Source of the DNA: a phage
Assembly: GCA_030877765.1 (NCBI GenBank)
Contig: GCA_030877765.1_4853.1
Strand: one strand, 5' to 3'
Length of the DNA: 46,671 nt
The position numbers and the translations under genes were made by a program. The stretch's first letter is position 1; each line of letters opens with the position of its first letter. Shown here piece after piece: positions 11,041-41,783 of the stretch. The notes under the pieces were generated by a model that had not been told where the DNA came from, made no database searches, and saw only the letters and a program-made list of their open reading frames with translations.

Positions 11041-11063
11041 AGCACGTTTTTAACGCATTCATG

Positions 11064-11092
11064 TTGACGTAGAATCACAACTGATGTAGATT
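11064..11092 (+). promoter_or_regulatory. Rightward early promoter
   Basis: TTGACG (11064-11069), 17-bp spacer, TAGATT (11087-11092); GAGGG RBS and ATG at 11123 downstream. Confidence 0.55.
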
Positions 11093-17162: not shown

Positions 17163-17183
17163 CCATATACCATCCATGCTATA

Positions 17184-17212
17184 ATCCCATCCAACGTGAT
17201 GGGATTTTTTAT
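17184..17212 (+). terminator. Rho-independent terminator immediately upstream of the portal gene
   Basis: 8-bp stem atcccatc/gatgggat, 6-nt loop, TTTTTTATT; a TGCTATAAT extended -10 overlaps its 5' side. Confidence 0.65.
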
Positions 17213-27034: not shown

Positions 27035-27050
27035 TCATGGGCTGCTATAA
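27035..27050 (+). promoter_or_regulatory. Extended -10 promoter (TGcTATAAT) ahead of the capsid module
   Basis: GGGCTGCTATAATTTAAT within an inverted repeat; same TGCTATAAT as at 17178. Confidence 0.4.
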
Positions 27051-27208
27051 TTTAATCAGGAGGTAGCCCATGAACACAATCCCTATCACCTACTTTCTCA
27101 CGCTATACGCACTCACCAATTCGCCATTGTTTGCACTGGCTACCGCCTCGTGGTGCTATATCTCCCTGTGTTATAATTCGACCACAAACTAACCGTGGAG
27201 AGTTAACC

Positions 27209-36222: not shown

Positions 36223-36596
36223 TGAATATGCTTGAACTGGTTGATGCATATCTTCAGGATGCAGGATTGTACGATGGCTGGACTTCGCAGCTGCAGTTCT
36301 GGAATGACACCGGAGATGGAAGTGAGCAATTTATTGTTCTGCAATCCAACGGTGGCACTCAGGTTATGGATGGCCTCGGCGGTGACTTCTATTTTTCGCT
36401 GTATGTTGTTGGCAAACAAGGCCAATACAATGTTGCTGATGTTGATTCGAAGGCCAATGAGATTATCGAATACATCAAAACACACCCGATTGATTCATGC
36501 GTTAACTACATCCAGTTGCAAGCGCCACTTGGCAGGGCAATGCTGACGGAAGAAAAAAGACCAGTGCATGAACTGCTATTACGTGTTGTGAAATAA
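36222..36596 (+). CDS. Putative tail terminator protein
   Basis: 124 aa; immediately before the major tail region. Confidence 0.45.
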   Translation: MNMLELVDAYLQDAGLYDGWTSQLQFWNDTGDGSEQFIVLQSNGGTQVMDGLGGDFYFSLYVVGKQGQYNVADVDSKANEIIEYIKTHPIDSCVNYIQLQAPLGRAMLTEEKRPVHELLLRVVK

Positions 36597-36597
36597 A

Positions 36598-36624
36598 TAA
36601 AGCCGCATGAAGCGGCTTTTAATT
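36598..36624. terminator. Bidirectional terminator
   Basis: Stem agccgc/gcggct with 5-nt loop; T-runs on both strands. Confidence 0.75.
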
Positions 36625-36701
36625 TGGTGGACACGGACGGATTTGAACCTTCAATCAGCCGATTATTAGTCGGTTGCTTTAACCAATTAAGCTACGCGTC
36701 C
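36625..36701 (-). tRNA. tRNA-like gene (77 nt including encoded CCA); apparent anticodon AAU
   Basis: Minus strand folds by eye: 7-bp acceptor stem with one G-U, D-arm GCTT/AAGC, anticodon stem-loop with loop CTAATAA, T-loop GGTTCAAATCC, discriminator A plus CCA. One mismatch each in anticodon and T stems. Confidence 0.55.
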
Positions 36702-37199
36702 ATAAGTGCTGGTTTAAGCATTGCCAGCGTGCTTTCTTAACATCCAGCCCCGTAACCCATACATACCCCTACATATGATTGCGATAATGCTGGATATTAA
36801 GTGTTGTGGTGGCCGGTGCTGATCTCCGGCATAAGGCGCTTATTCGGCGGCGTCGAGCTTGCTTATTCGCTTGAGCCATCCTCGTGAGTCAGCCACGTCC
36901 CACTGCGCATCAGCCTGCGCATTCACCACAACGGAAAGAGCACTGATGCGCTCACTTGGGACTCCTTAGCCATAACCCACGGGCTTCTGGTACACCAATG
37001 CTCTTACCTGTTGTGTTCCCTGACTTATTAATCACACCTCAGGGACGCAGTGCGCCGAATTTGTTTACAAGGAATCGGAAGACCTTGCTGACTTACAGGC
37101 TATTACGCCGCCATCAGAACAACATCATCGTTTGCATTTATCTTTGTGGTCAGTTTCTAAAAAGTCCGCAAAGTCGCTCACGAAAACTATCTGAAATAC

Positions 37200-37243
37200 A
37201 ATCTACACCACAAAATAATCGCTGTCAACACCTGTGATATAAT
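37200..37243. promoter_or_regulatory. Divergent promoter pair: leftward into the non-coding locus, rightward for the major tail gene
   Basis: Minus strand TTGACA (37228-37223), 17 bp, TAGATT (37205-37200); plus strand extended -10 TGaTATAAT (37235-37243). Confidence 0.6.
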
Positions 37244-37279
37244 CACCACGTTAGCAGCTAACACAATTCGGAGATCGAA

Positions 37280-37999
37280 ATGGCTATTTGTGCAAATGAT
37301 AAAGGCGTTCTGGTCGGTCGCATGACCCGACTGTTCCTTGCTGAAGGGTGCGGCGACGCAGTTCCGGATGCAGGCGACTGGAAGTATTTAGGCTCAACCA
37401 CCAGTAAAGGCGTTGACTACTCGCCGCAGACCACTACGTCGGAAGCGGATACCGCTGGCGGCTTTGTTTCTACTCTCGTTACCAGCTCTGATATGACCAT
37501 CAGTGCAGAGGTAGAAATCCGCAAGAATGACCCGAGCGATGAGTTTGGCTTCCATCGTCTTGTTGAGATTTACACCACTGAACTGAAGGCTCGCCGCCAG
37601 CCTTCCTTGTGGGTGCGTCAGGTGACTGGTGCAACTATCGTTACCGCGTATTGCAACATCACCAGCATCAGCTACGAAGGTGGCACGAACGATATCGTTA
37701 CTGGTAGCCTTGAGTTTAAGGTTTACGATTCTGACAGCGTTACCGTAGAAAGCCTTGAACCTCTGGCATTCACTACCGACCTGCAATCAACTGGCACGGC
37801 CGGAATCCCGTTAACCGTTGCTGTTGAAGGTGGCGTTGATCCTTACACTTATGTATGGCGCAAAGATGGCGCAGTTGTTGATGGTGAGTCTGGCGCATCT
37901 CTGGCAAGCCCTACCGCTGGCGTGCATACCGTCACGGTAACTGATTCATCTACCGACCCGGAAATTATCATCAGCACGGCGTGCACGGTATCCCGATAA
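37280..37999 (+). CDS. Major tail protein with C-terminal Ig-like domain
   Basis: 239 aa, GGAG RBS; Thr/Val-rich Ig-like C-terminus as in lambda V; followed by a strong terminator. Confidence 0.7.
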   Translation: MAICANDKGVLVGRMTRLFLAEGCGDAVPDAGDWKYLGSTTSKGVDYSPQTTTSEADTAGGFVSTLVTSSDMTISAEVEIRKNDPSDEFGFHRLVEIYTTELKARRQPSLWVRQVTGATIVTAYCNITSISYEGGTNDIVTGSLEFKVYDSDSVTVESLEPLAFTTDLQSTGTAGIPLTVAVEGGVDPYTYVWRKDGAVVDGESGASLASPTAGVHTVTVTDSSTDPEIIISTACTVSR

Positions 38000-38004
38000 A
38001 GAAA

Positions 38005-38030
38005 AGCCCCGAAAGGGGCTTTGTTTTATT
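38005..38030. terminator. Bidirectional terminator
   Basis: Stem agcccc/ggggct with gaaa loop, TTGTTTTATT. Confidence 0.8.
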
Positions 38031-38226
38031 CTTGTGGTGGTTCTGGCGGATTGGCCCAGTGGGTAGCTGGAATTCCGTGACAGCAGTCCAATTCACTAAC
38101 AAATATCTTGCTGCCAATATTATCGACAGCTTTACATACCGCAGTTCTAACAACACCGCGAAATGCTGTAAGAACCATCGTTCCTTCTTCTGGCATTCGC
38201 TCACTACACTTAATCCACTGGCTCAT
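38026..38226 (-). CDS. DUF551-like protein
   Basis: MSQWIKCSERMPEEGTMVL matches the DUF551 N-terminal signature. Confidence 0.55.
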   Translation of the reverse strand: MSQWIKCSERMPEEGTMVLTAFRGVVRTAVCKAVDNIGSKIFVSELDCCHGIPATHWANPPEPPQE

Positions 38227-38366
38227 ATCACCTTGTCCTCATCAAAAATCACGCCAATAACGCGAAGTAAGTCTTTCGCCATGCGTTCCGCTTCCTCGTA
38301 GTCGTAACCTGCATCAACATACAAATCAGTGTAGAAAATCAGGTCAGCTTTTGTTTGTTCGTTCAT
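38223..38366 (-). CDS. Small acidic protein (47 aa)
   Basis: ATGA overlaps at both ends with the Imm-like and DUF551-like genes. Confidence 0.3.
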   Translation of the reverse strand: MNEQTKADLIFYTDLYVDAGYDYEEAERMAKDLLRVIGVIFDEDKVI

Positions 38367-38557
38367 TTCTTGTCGCCACTGTTAACTAATGCCCAAACAA
38401 GTGCCGCAACCCATCCAATAAAGCTCCACCCGACAAGAATATTCAGTACACAGATTGCTGTCGTGTTTGTGTGCTTGCGTTGCAAAGCCACAAATGATGG
38501 AAGAAGATAAACAAATATAACCAATCCAGCAAAAAGCAACAAAATAACAACATCCAT
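38363..38557 (-). CDS. Superinfection immunity (Imm-like) small membrane protein
   Basis: Two TM helices; LPSFVALQRKHTN...LNILVGWSFIGWVAALVWAL matches the Imm superinfection-immunity family pattern. Confidence 0.6.
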   Translation of the reverse strand: MDVVILLLFAGLVIFVYLLPSFVALQRKHTNTTAICVLNILVGWSFIGWVAALVWALVNSGDKK

Positions 38558-38592
38558 AACTCACCTCATTCATATCTCGTTTCGATGATTTG

Positions 38593-38641
38593 AATCTACA
38601 TCACCACCTCGCAGGTGTCAACACTACTGAGATGATATAAT
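38593..38641. promoter_or_regulatory. Divergent promoter pair: leftward for the Imm cassette, rightward for the tail assembly genes
   Basis: Minus strand TTGACA (38621-38616), 17 bp, TAGATT (38598-38593); plus strand extended -10 TGaTATAAT (38633-38641). Confidence 0.6.
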
Positions 38642-38670
38642 CAACATCAGTCAAATTCAGGATGCAAAAC

Positions 38671-39408
38671 ATGAGCAATCGCACGCCACTAACAGAAATC
38701 GGGGAGATGCGCATCTCGCTTTCTGACAGGAGTTTTTTCTTTAAGCCATCATTCCGTGCCATGAATGAAATTGGCACGCCAAAAGAAATCGTCGAGGTAT
38801 ACGCTAAGCTCAATGGCATTGATTATATTGCGCCGTTGCAGCACGTCGAATACCTGCCATTTGGCGCGCAGATGCAGGTTATGAAGACCATCAGCAAACC
38901 TGTGTATGGTCGCCATGTACTGAGCGCAGCCTATATCGTCATGCAATCATGCTGTGAAGATGATATTTCTGTGCTGATTGGTGGATGGAAGCCAACACCG
39001 CGCGGTGTGCGATACGTGCCGGGAGTAATGCCAATTGGCGGCACTGGACATTTGCCAGGTGGAACAGGTGGAATTATTGAGATTGCCCGCTCATTAATGG
39101 AGCACGGCATTATTGGCAAATCACCACTCAAAGTGCCTGAGCGTCTGGAAGAGCAGGGTAAGAAAACCACAAATGAGTTTCATGCGTCGCAATACATCAT
39201 CTCAGCGCGCACGCATTTCGACATGACGCGTGATGAGGCCGAAAACCTGTCCATGACAGAGTTTCAGATGATGATTAAAAATAAATATCCAGAGCCGAAA
39301 GGGTTAACGAAAGAAGAGCGCGCGGCAGAGTACGATCAGGCTAAAGCAGACCGTGAGCGCATGAAGGCACTGGCTGAACGCAAAGCGAAAAAAGCGAGGA
39401 ATACATAA
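38671..39408 (+). CDS. Putative tail assembly chaperone
   Basis: Immediately upstream of the tape measure gene; AGGA RBS; Lys/Glu-rich C-terminus. Confidence 0.5.
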   Translation: MSNRTPLTEIGEMRISLSDRSFFFKPSFRAMNEIGTPKEIVEVYAKLNGIDYIAPLQHVEYLPFGAQMQVMKTISKPVYGRHVLSAAYIVMQSCCEDDISVLIGGWKPTPRGVRYVPGVMPIGGTGHLPGGTGGIIEIARSLMEHGIIGKSPLKVPERLEEQGKKTTNEFHASQYIISARTHFDMTRDEAENLSMTEFQMMIKNKYPEPKGLTKEERAAEYDQAKADRERMKALAERKAKKARNT

Positions 39409-41782
39409 TGGCTGAAGAAGTCGGCGGAATTGTCTATGAAGTCGGGATGGATGTTAAAGGCCTGAAGGCTGGCGCGACAACAGCCAATAAGACTTTAGAT
39501 GACCTTGAATCATCAACCAACAAAACCACAAGCGCCCTTGGCAAGCTGGATAAAAACGCCAGAAATGCTGGCAGCGGAATGAAAAATGCTGGCGGCGCAG
39601 CTTCAGGGCTAAAAACGCAGATGACGGCTCTTGCTGGCGCAATATCCGTGTCACTGATTATCGAATGGGGAAAGCGATTCCTTGATGTTGCCGATAACAT
39701 GACACAACTTCAGGCAAGGATTGCTCGCTTGTCAACTGATGCGAAAACCGCGAACGAAACATTCAGTACACTGGCAAATATCGCCTCGACCACTGGCGCA
39801 AGTCTCAGCGACACCACGAAGCTGTGGGAAACATTGACGTCATCACTGAAAGAGGCTGGCGCGACAAATGCGCAGGTTCTTAACCTTACTGACACTCTGC
39901 AAAAGATAGGACGAATCGGCGGGTCATCAACAGAAGAAATGGCGAACGCCCTGCGTCAGTTCGGTCAGTCAATTGCTTCTGGCACAATCCGCGCCGAAGA
40001 ATTTAACTCCATCCTTGAACAGATGCCTGAACTTGCGCGCCAGATTGCAGCTGGACTTGGCATTTCAATGGGCGAACTTCGCGCCAGAATGCTTGACGGA
40101 AAGCTGACGGCAGAAGATGCACTGAATGCCATTCAGGACAGGACAAGCATCGTCAATGCTGAGTTTGAAAAACTTCCTCGCACAATGGATCAGGCCGTTG
40201 GTTCTCTTGAAGTTTCATTCTCCAAACTTGTGGTTGCCGTTAACGATGCCACTGGCGCATCAAAAACAGTAGTAGAGATTATCGACCAGCTGGCAAAATA
40301 CATTGATTTCCTCGGCGACAAATCAACCAGCACGAGCGACAAGATTCTATCTCTCGCCACGGTTATCTCGAAGCTAAACCCAGGCGCATGGGCACAAATG
40401 GGGGTTGATGCGCTTTTCGGTGATGATGATATTGAGAAGCAAAAACAATATAACGATCAAGTCGAGCGATTCGTTAAGGCTTCAAAAGAAGGTTACGAGC
40501 AGACAAAGAAACAGGCTGAAGCAACAAAACACCTGAAGATTGCACAAGCACCAACCAAAGACAAGAAAGGCAAAGGAAAGGGCAAAAGCGCCGAAGAACG
40601 GCAAGCTGAGTCAGTTGCTGAAAAGCTGGAGAAATTACGCCAGCAAACCATGCTTAATGCCACATCTACCAGCGAACTCTCCCGCGATCAAGCCATCCTC
40701 AACGCGCAGCAATCGCTTGGCAAGGCTGCCACTCAGGAACAAATAAAACTGGCTGGCGAGTACGCTGCGAAGATTTGGGACCAGAGAAACGCGCTGAAGG
40801 AGCAGGCAGCAGCTGAGAAAGAAAAGCAGCGCGTAGAAAAATCATATCAGGGGTTGCGCGCCATTGCGTCACCAACATCTGGCATTGATAGTGAATACCA
40901 GCAACGCATGGCTGACCTTGACGCCTACGCCGCAGCATATCCACAAAAAATCACGGAGATTGAGCAGACTCGCGCAGCAATTGAGGCACAGTACCGCCAG
41001 CAGAGAATGGACGCCATGTGGGCTGAATGGCAGCAGCAAAGCCTCGGGGCGCAATTGTTCGGCACGGCGCTTGATTCAGCGATGAGTACAGCATCAAACA
41101 GCATCACTGGATTGCTCACAGGCACAATGAGCGTTCAGGATGCAATGCGCAGCCTCGGCTCTACGGTGCTGAATTCTCTGGTAAACAGCTTTGTTGAAAT
41201 GGGCGTTCAGTGGGTTAAATCCGCCGTTATGGGGCAGACTGCGCAGGTTGCGGCAACAGCTACCACCACAGCGGCGCAAACGGCAGGACTCGCAACCACA
41301 ACAGCAGCATCAACTGCAGCGGCAGCAACCACTACCGCAGCATGGACTCCAGCGGCAATCGTAGCATCAATCGGTTCATTCGGCGGGGCGGCTGCAATTG
41401 GTGTAGGTGCTGTTCTCGGGGCACTGGCAATGGGTATCGCTGGCAAGCGAAAAAATGGCGGCTCAGTTAGCGCCGGAAGTATGTACGAAGTGGGCGAAAA
41501 TGGCTTGCCTGAAATATTCCAGGCGTCCAACGGTCGCCAGTATATGATTCCCGGCAACGATGGCTCAGTTATCAGCAACAAAGACATTACCGGAAGTGGC
41601 AGTGGCGTTGTGGTTTATAATAACGTGATAAATAACAGCTCTGCTCAGGTTAGCAGCAGTGCCAGAGATAATGGTGATGGCAGTGTGACGATTGAGACTA
41701 TCGTTAGTGATATCGAAAACAACGGCCCTATCGGGCAAAGCATTGGAAGAAACTACTCAGCAAGCCGGAGGGCAACTGAATA

Positions 41783-41783
<1 letters not shown>
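39408..41783 (+). CDS. Tail tape measure protein
   Basis: 791 aa, long Ala/Gln/Glu-rich helical regions, Thr/Ala-rich segment, Gly-rich putative TM segment. Confidence 0.9.

Follow-up and report, generated by a model that had tools for sequence, protein, structure and literature searches.

A leftward modular operon carrying a T4 Imm-family gene in the tail gene region of a Skatevirus-like phage

Organization of the locus

Three minus-strand open reading frames (ORFs), listed as encoding proteins of 64, 47 and 66 amino acids (aa), occupy positions 38026-38557 of a phage contig of 46,671 nucleotides (GCA_030877765.1_4853.1; hereafter, the window). They are located in a slot bounded by the major tail protein gene on one side and, on the other side, by the DUF6246 gene that precedes the tape measure gene. 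The following features were identified in this region.

37280-37999, plus strand: major tail protein gene, rightward (phrog_853, E = 4e-85)
38003-38022, both strands: bidirectional intrinsic terminator AAAGCCCC-GAAA-GGGGCTTT, with a T-run on each strand (terminator scan)
38026..38226, minus strand: third gene, DUF551 protein of 66 aa (PF04448)
38223..38366, minus strand: second gene, acidic protein of 47 aa, pI 4.1 (phrog_17424, E = 1.8e-36)
38363..38557, minus strand: Imm-like protein of 64 aa with two predicted transmembrane (TM) helices (PF14373; phrog_1039)
38562..38567, minus strand: ribosome-binding site (RBS) GAGGTG, 4 nt 5' of the imm-like ATG (read from the sequence)
38593..38621, minus strand: leftward sigma-70-type promoter, -35 TTGACA (38621-38616), 17-nt spacer, -10 TAGATT (38598-38593)
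38633-38641, plus strand: extended -10 promoter TGATATAAT reading rightward, placed back-to-back to the leftward one and lacking a recognisable -35
38671-39408, plus strand: DUF6246/phrog_791 protein gene, rightward (DUF6246, 225 bits; both families lack a known function)
39408-41783, plus strand: 791-aa ORF, rightward, counterpart of the annotated tape measure gene of relatives

In leftward order, the imm-like gene is followed by the gene for the 47-aa protein and then by the DUF551 gene, and each neighbouring pair overlaps by a 4-nt ATGA (minus-strand sequences AGAAATGAACG and TGATATGAGCC). A sequence-only reading of this DNA had described three ATGA-coupled genes running opposite to the tail genes, and this layout is borne out. 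The span given there for the cassette, 38026-38641, ends at the last base of the rightward extended -10 element, which does not belong to the cassette. The flanks had been named as major tail and tail assembly genes. The former assignment agrees with the phrog_853 match, whereas the latter label finds no counterpart in the DUF6246 and phrog_791 matches; a role of the DUF6246 gene in tail assembly is compatible with its position before the tape measure gene, the one feature that fits.

In pairwise comparisons with relatives, at pS of 0.3-0.5, the pN/pS ratio was 0.11 for the imm-like gene, 0.04 for the 47-aa protein gene and 0.12 for the DUF551 gene, indicating that all three ORFs are real protein-coding genes under purifying selection. 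A plus-strand ORF at 37981-38301 (106 aa) and alternative minus-frame ORFs at 38382-38573 and 38443-38553 were rejected because the substitutions among relatives fit the three annotated frames. Scans of the three cassette proteins with PADLOC and NCBIfam returned sub-threshold noise only.

Promoters and terminators

The leftward promoter, with its TTGACA and TAGATT hexamers separated by 17 nt, is present as the sequence-only reading had it, and transcription from it would start near position 38586. Eight promoter-like sites were found in a 3.1-kb region, compared to 4.2 +/- 2.0 in shuffled sequences, so that a lone match to the promoter consensus is not significant by itself. The extended motif GTGTTGACA-N15-TGTAGATT, however, occurs in exactly two copies in the window, at 38624..38593 and 37231..37200, each heading a leftward unit; with up to three mismatches allowed, there were 3 matches in the window against 0.07 expected. 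The third copy, with two mismatches (ATGTTGACG...TGTAGATT), is located elsewhere in the genome, at 11061-11092 on the plus strand. Both hexamers are invariant in all 10 related loci compared, whereas the spacer varies at 5 of its 17 positions, and Klebsiella phage relatives with diverged intergenic DNA still contain TTGACA, 18 nt and TAGATT. The leader and the RBS are retained in the 10 loci regardless of which gene comes first.

The rightward promoter TGATATAAT at 38633-38641 would serve the DUF6246 and tape measure genes and lies outside the cassette transcript. The same back-to-back pairing of leftward and rightward promoters recurs at 37200-37243, before the major tail gene, and in the Klebsiella phage relatives. 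Both promoters next to the imm-like gene are also annotated in the GenBank record of phage ASO78B (MZ726796). Polymerases bound at these two promoters would have overlapping footprints, and competition between the promoters is therefore possible. Perfect TGnTATAAT elements occur in five copies on the plus strand of the window (17177-17185, 27043-27051, 27169-27177, 37235-37243 and 38633-38641) and in none on the minus strand, with about 0.7 per strand expected by chance under equal base frequencies. At least three of the five are directly upstream of rightward genes. This distribution suggests that rightward operons of the phage use promoters that need no -35 element.

The bidirectional terminator, also claimed in the sequence-only reading, is located at 38003-38022, just outside the start of the span given there. 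Its hairpin folds with -16.4 and -14.8 kcal/mol on the two strands (z-scores of -4.1 and -4.0), is common to the cassette and the convergent major tail gene, and is conserved in the 10 related loci. The 47-aa protein gene contains, at its 3' end, another hairpin that resembles a terminator and precedes a T-run (38249-38265, minus strand); this hairpin is weak (-6.1 kcal/mol, z-score of -1.4) and is probably a by-product of the coding sequence. A bidirectional terminator on one side and a bidirectional promoter module on the other appear to flank each leftward unit, such that transcription of the tail genes could resume afterwards.

Chance often produces short ORFs and isolated promoter-like matches, as the eight sites against 4.2 expected illustrate, and the ORFs and the promoter could be viewed as chance features or as unexpressed, decaying remnants. 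We regard this as highly improbable. All three frames are under strong purifying selection, the family matches are significant, and the promoter, RBS and terminator are conserved across genera; the combination of promoter conservation and purifying selection effectively refutes this explanation.

A second leftward unit with a tRNA gene

A second leftward unit of the same architecture is located one gene upstream, at 36599-37243 of the window, and comprises the following features.

36619..36599, minus strand: terminator
36625-36701, minus strand: tRNA-Ile with the unusual anticodon AAT (ARAGORN; Rfam tRNA, 62 bits)
37231..37200, minus strand: promoter GTGTTGACA-N15-TGTAGATT, back-to-back with a rightward TGATATAAT element directed towards the major tail gene (37235-37243)

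The same tRNA-Ile call has been made for phage vB_Eco_ZCEC08 (PMC12001532). In relatives, the tRNA slot holds Arg-TCT and Ser-GCT tRNAs (ASO78B), a Met tRNA (others) or an HNH endonuclease gene. About 500 nt of the second unit contain no ORF of 50 aa or longer and no significant fold (z-score of -1.7), and the tRNA was the only Rfam match above threshold in the 36400-38800 interval. Sub-threshold tmRNA matches at 37054-37212 (minus strand), within the non-coding leader of the tRNA unit, scored 27 and 18 bits against gathering thresholds of 47 and 84, and may represent decayed tRNA-like remnants or chance similarity.

The Imm-like protein

Judging by its profile and pairwise matches, the 64-aa protein is a true member of the T4 Imm family (PF14373). 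It matches the PF14373 Imm_superinfect profile with 67.1 bits, against a cut-off of 27.9, over the full 42-position model, to which T4 Imm itself (from NC_000866) aligns with 58.2 bits, and phrog_1039, annotated as 'immunity to superinfection', with E = 2.9e-24. In a BLASTP comparison with T4 Imm, 34% of the residues are identical and 55% are positives over 62 aa (pairwise E = 1e-12), and the two proteins have the LP..A..R and GWS.IGW motifs in common. Kyte-Doolittle windows exceed 1.6 over residues ~3-25 and ~33-59, with a GRAVY of 1.26, and the two predicted helices are joined by a basic loop, QRKH (segment QRKHTN). The protein is accordingly predicted to be a small integral inner-membrane protein with two TM helices; the sequence-only reading had called it an Imm-like membrane protein. 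Members of the PF14373 family were found in 1,811 phage records, including T-even, Jersey-like, Acinetobacter and jumbo phages and mycobacteriophages, and tblastn also reached T4-type phages.

T4, like the phage group described here, is virulent, and both its Imm and the 64-aa protein are small, with two hydrophobic helices. The differences are of length and context. T4 Imm is 83 aa long, whereas the cassette protein lacks the terminal extensions of the T4 protein; unlike T4 imm, the imm-like gene lies in the tail module of a siphovirus, where it opens a coupled three-gene operon on the opposite strand; and, again unlike T4, the window holds no Spackle partner.

Relatives and the modular content of the unit

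The region matched 387 phage records, with relatives in the genera Skatevirus, Deseoctovirus, Segzyvirus, Saltrevirus and Macdonaldcampvirus. The best match was Escherichia phage vB_Eco_ZCEC08 (PP213477), with DNA identities of ~97% for the 3-kb region and 97.6% for the cassette, followed by phages HC6 (OL362274) and 6947, at 97.8%; HC6 encodes an identical 64-aa Imm. The BASEL paper unites 'Skatevirus and relatives' as virulent small siphoviruses that recognize surface glycans via tailspikes (PMC11990801), and the closest relatives are reported to be virulent, without lysogeny markers (PMC12001532; PMC11990801).

The cassette is found in the same position, on the same strand and with the same order, promoter and terminator in ZCEC08, HC6, ASO78B, SeSz-2, C1 and Bas80/81. 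In GenBank records of relatives, its products are labelled either 'superinfection immunity protein' or 'immunity to superinfection' and, for the third gene, 'DUF551 domain-containing protein'. The ASO78B record additionally marks the terminator and the two divergent promoters, and the ZCEC08 paper lists a reverse-strand superinfection immunity protein (PMC12001532). The cassette is thus already known at the level of annotation, from near-identical published relatives.

Across the relatives, the promoter is followed by an optional gene for a 97-aa signal-peptide protein, an optional imm gene, the invariably present 47-aa protein gene, an optional NinX/DUF2591 gene, a usually present DUF551 gene with a variable centre, and the terminator. 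The window carries the minimal three-gene version, to which relatives add the exported protein gene before imm and/or the NinX/DUF2591 gene before the DUF551 gene. The imm gene is absent from phages LPSTLL, 64795_sal3 and ST46 and from Klebsiella phages 6991 and SCNJ1-C, all of which keep the 47-aa protein gene, and Bas78 is a further relative lacking imm; Imm is therefore an exchangeable module, and the 47-aa protein gene forms the conserved core. A modular accessory operon, with Imm as one optional module, is a more fitting description of the unit. Divergent units are also present at this position, flanked by the DUF6246 and major tail genes, in Klebsiella phages and in Vibrio and Aeromonas phages (Roufvirus), where a 44-aa homolog of the 47-aa protein comes first, with or without Imm, and is followed by HNH, NinX or DUF7740 genes. 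The imm gene of Vibrio phage pYD38-A overlaps the gene for the 47-aa homolog by ATGA, as in the window.

The exported protein that heads the cassette in many relatives, and is absent from the window, is 97-112 aa long and has a signal peptide and two conserved Cys residues (phrog_2315). Among the nine related loci, denoted L001-L009, its gene was located as follows.

L004, 1589-1882: exported protein gene
L005, 1960-2253: exported protein gene
L006, 1926-2219: exported protein gene
L007, 1683-1976: exported protein gene
L008, 1382-1675: exported protein gene
L009, 1191-1529: exported protein gene

Imm, the exported protein or both are encoded in all 10 Skatevirus-like loci (the window and L001-L009). 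AlphaFold2 produced a confident four-helix bundle model for the exported protein, with no significant match in the PDB. The possibility that this protein is an analog of T4 Spackle was rejected, given that it resembles T4 Sp in neither sequence nor fold.

Traces of module exchange are apparent in several of these loci. In phage C1 (L005, 1921-1971), the RBS-plus-start string GAGGTGAGTTATG precedes both the 97-aa protein gene and imm, and a deletion across this repeat would yield the arrangement of the window, with imm directly behind the leader. The NinX/DUF2591 genes (L001, L003 and L005-L007) have near-identical termini, MKNYEDMSD...NPLRAAMIVFLKMNEDKL, and unrelated centres. DUF551 proteins are likewise mosaic, with near-identical termini, MSQWIKCSERMP...HWMPLPEPPQE, around unrelated central segments. 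Together with the ATGA overlaps kept at every junction, this mosaicism suggests recombination at gene boundaries.

The DUF551 protein of the window scores 44 bits on PF04448 (cut-off of 22) in an alignment that spans all 68 model positions, and W4, K6, C7, P12, P61, P63 and P64 are invariant in the alignment. The termini are conserved, with W-I/V-x-x-x-x-x-P at the N-terminus and HW-x-P-L-P-x-P-P at the C-terminus, and the centre is variable. DUF551 has been characterized as a portable domain without a known function (PMC10834534). An AlphaFold2 model built on a 23-sequence alignment was unusable (pLDDT of 54, pTM of 0.39), a PDB sequence search with this protein found no solved structure, and the structure of the lambda Ea22 C-terminal domain was rejected as a representative of DUF551 because the domain is carried by the Stx Ea22 V2 variant alone.

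The 47-aa protein as the conserved core

The 47-aa acidic protein is the invariant core of the unit, present in every relative examined. At pS values of up to 0.46, pN/pS of its gene is 0.04, and there is not a single amino acid change in comparisons with four relatives at pS of 0.29-0.46. Homologs were found in 205 phage records, in the same slot, including Klebsiella and Vibrio/Aeromonas phages; the homolog of Vibrio phage pYD38-A (NC_021534; L011, 2001-2135), whose start overlaps the Imm stop as ATGA, is unannotated in RefSeq. The protein had no match in Pfam, NCBIfam or PADLOC. Searches for distant homologs, a word-indexed one that returned 10 close relatives and an exhaustive HMMER search that returned 7 representatives among 1.84 billion proteins, yielded no annotation or functional clue, and no Pfam, NCBIfam or PADLOC match ties either the 47-aa or the DUF551 protein to exclusion.

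This pattern of conservation invites a different view of the entire unit, namely, that it represents an early accessory or host-takeover operon of ancient origin in which the near-invariant 47-aa protein performs the real function, for example, as a small inhibitor or regulator of a host protein or as a factor tied to the divergent promoter switch, with Imm, NinX/DUF2591, DUF551 and the 97-aa exported protein as interchangeable passengers. 'Exclusion cassette' would then be a misnomer. The 47-aa protein gene is present in every locus examined, with the low pN/pS ratio and the lack of changes noted above, and its homologs take up the corresponding position in Klebsiella, Vibrio and Aeromonas phages, whereas the presence of Imm, NinX and the exported protein varies between loci; furthermore, NinX and DUF551 are typical of the early/nin accessory regions of lambdoid phages. 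However, the 47-aa protein, with its 7 representatives, offers no homology-based or structural clue to such a function, its ATGA coupling to Imm in the window and in pYD38-A is also compatible with a functional Imm/47-aa pair, and the host-takeover scenario leaves an exclusion role of Imm itself uncontradicted. We consider this scenario possible but clearly less probable than a moron-like unit with Imm-mediated exclusion.

A related and rather unlikely proposal assigns the central function to the 44-47-aa protein rather than to Imm, within an ancient, divergently transcribed early unit that is shared by Skatevirus-like coliphages and Roufvirus-like phages of Klebsiella, Vibrio and Aeromonas. 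The protein would act either as a small host-takeover or regulatory protein or as the cytoplasmic partner of Imm in a two-component exclusion system. The back-to-back promoters (TTGACA/TAGATT and TGnTATAAT) could also constitute a mutually exclusive early/late switch for the tail genes.

Predicted function of the unit

Autonomous promoter-gene-terminator units inserted among tail genes are familiar from lambdoid phages, where such morons are expressed from prophages of temperate phages. Some lambdoid morons contain exclusion genes (HK97 gp15), and siphoviruses also encode DNA-entry blockers such as the lactococcal Sie2009; these are small inner-membrane proteins that are expected to block genome entry. 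The present unit resembles these systems in architecture, having its own promoter and its own terminator. Sporadic presence, another hallmark of morons, applies to the imm, NinX and 97-aa protein genes, but not to the 47-aa protein gene or to the unit as a whole, which are found in every relative examined; thus, the core is conserved rather than sporadic. Expression from a prophage, as in lambdoid phages, is not expected, given that the phage group is virulent and the closest relatives are reported as such (PMC12001532; PMC11990801).

With these qualifications, we favour the interpretation of the locus as a moron-like leftward unit with a homology-predicted exclusion function of Imm and two accessory proteins, and assign to it a probability of roughly 55%. 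The host RNA polymerase with sigma-70 would read the unit from the TTGACA-17-TAGATT promoter, requiring no phage factor, probably from the start of infection. The Imm-like inner-membrane protein would most likely block, as inferred by homology to T4 Imm, the entry of DNA from secondary phages that have already adsorbed, and the 47-aa and DUF551 proteins would be co-translated accessory proteins. The bidirectional terminator would halt polymerases converging from the major tail gene, and the rightward extended -10 promoter would restart transcription of the tail genes downstream.

In T4, Imm is a plasma-membrane protein that acts with Spackle to prevent the genomes of secondary phages from being translocated, leaving adsorption unaffected (PMC6832632; PMC7677548). 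For phages that target glycans, masking of the receptor has been argued to be futile (PMC11990801), and, with glycan receptors in this phage group, a post-adsorption block of DNA entry is plausible. This sets the predicted mechanism apart from that of T1 Cor and T5 Llp, exclusion lipoproteins of virulent small siphoviruses that are encoded near tail genes as well (PMC11990801). Cor and Llp target the porin receptor in the outer membrane and keep phages from adsorbing, whereas the Imm-like protein, predicted to span the inner membrane twice, would act after adsorption. We infer that superinfection exclusion at the step of DNA entry is the best functional assignment for the imm-like gene. T4 Imm acts against T-even myoviruses, so the transfer of its activity to siphoviral DNA entry is an assumption, and the literature searched contained no exclusion phenotype, transcript or topology for siphoviral Imm homologs. 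In Kagunavirus K1B4, a gene annotated as 'superinfection immunity' was classed as late by RNA-seq (PMC12645636), which counts against early exclusion; this timing is not directly transferable because K1B4 belongs to a different phage group.

The placement of the putative K1B4 homolog among late and lysis functions (PMC12645636) also bears on a role of the Imm-like protein in lysis control or envelope protection rather than in the exclusion of incoming genomes, either in a holin/antiholin-like capacity or in resistance to lysis from without and 'secondary traumatization'. T4 Imm is said to be holin-like, to aid resistance to lysis from without and to help delay the collapse of lysis inhibition (PMC6832632), and the small size and two TM helices of the Imm-like protein are in line with such a role. 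Nevertheless, the imm-like gene lies outside the lysis module, the holin and lysis genes of the closest relative being annotated elsewhere (PMC12001532), and has its own constitutive-type promoter, and exclusion is the main phenotype seen in the genetics of T4 imm (PMC6832632; PMC7677548). A lysis-related function therefore appears improbable.

The designation of the locus as a superinfection-exclusion cassette, introduced in the sequence-only reading, is partly supported: it holds as a prediction from homology where the imm-like gene is concerned and is overstated for the unit as a whole, in which Imm is optional and no finding links the 47-aa and DUF551 proteins to exclusion.

Implications

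As it stands, the analysis adds nothing beyond the existing database annotation, and the sole, mildly novel angle is the combination of a strictly conserved, lineage-restricted 47-aa protein with a recurring bidirectional promoter module. If the favoured interpretation is correct, the Imm mechanism of T4 would also operate in small, virulent, glycan-targeting siphoviruses. This would matter for the composition of phage cocktails, in which carriers of the gene could interfere with co-administered phages. The 64-aa protein would, moreover, provide a compact model for the Imm-mediated block of genome entry, which is unexplained even for T4.
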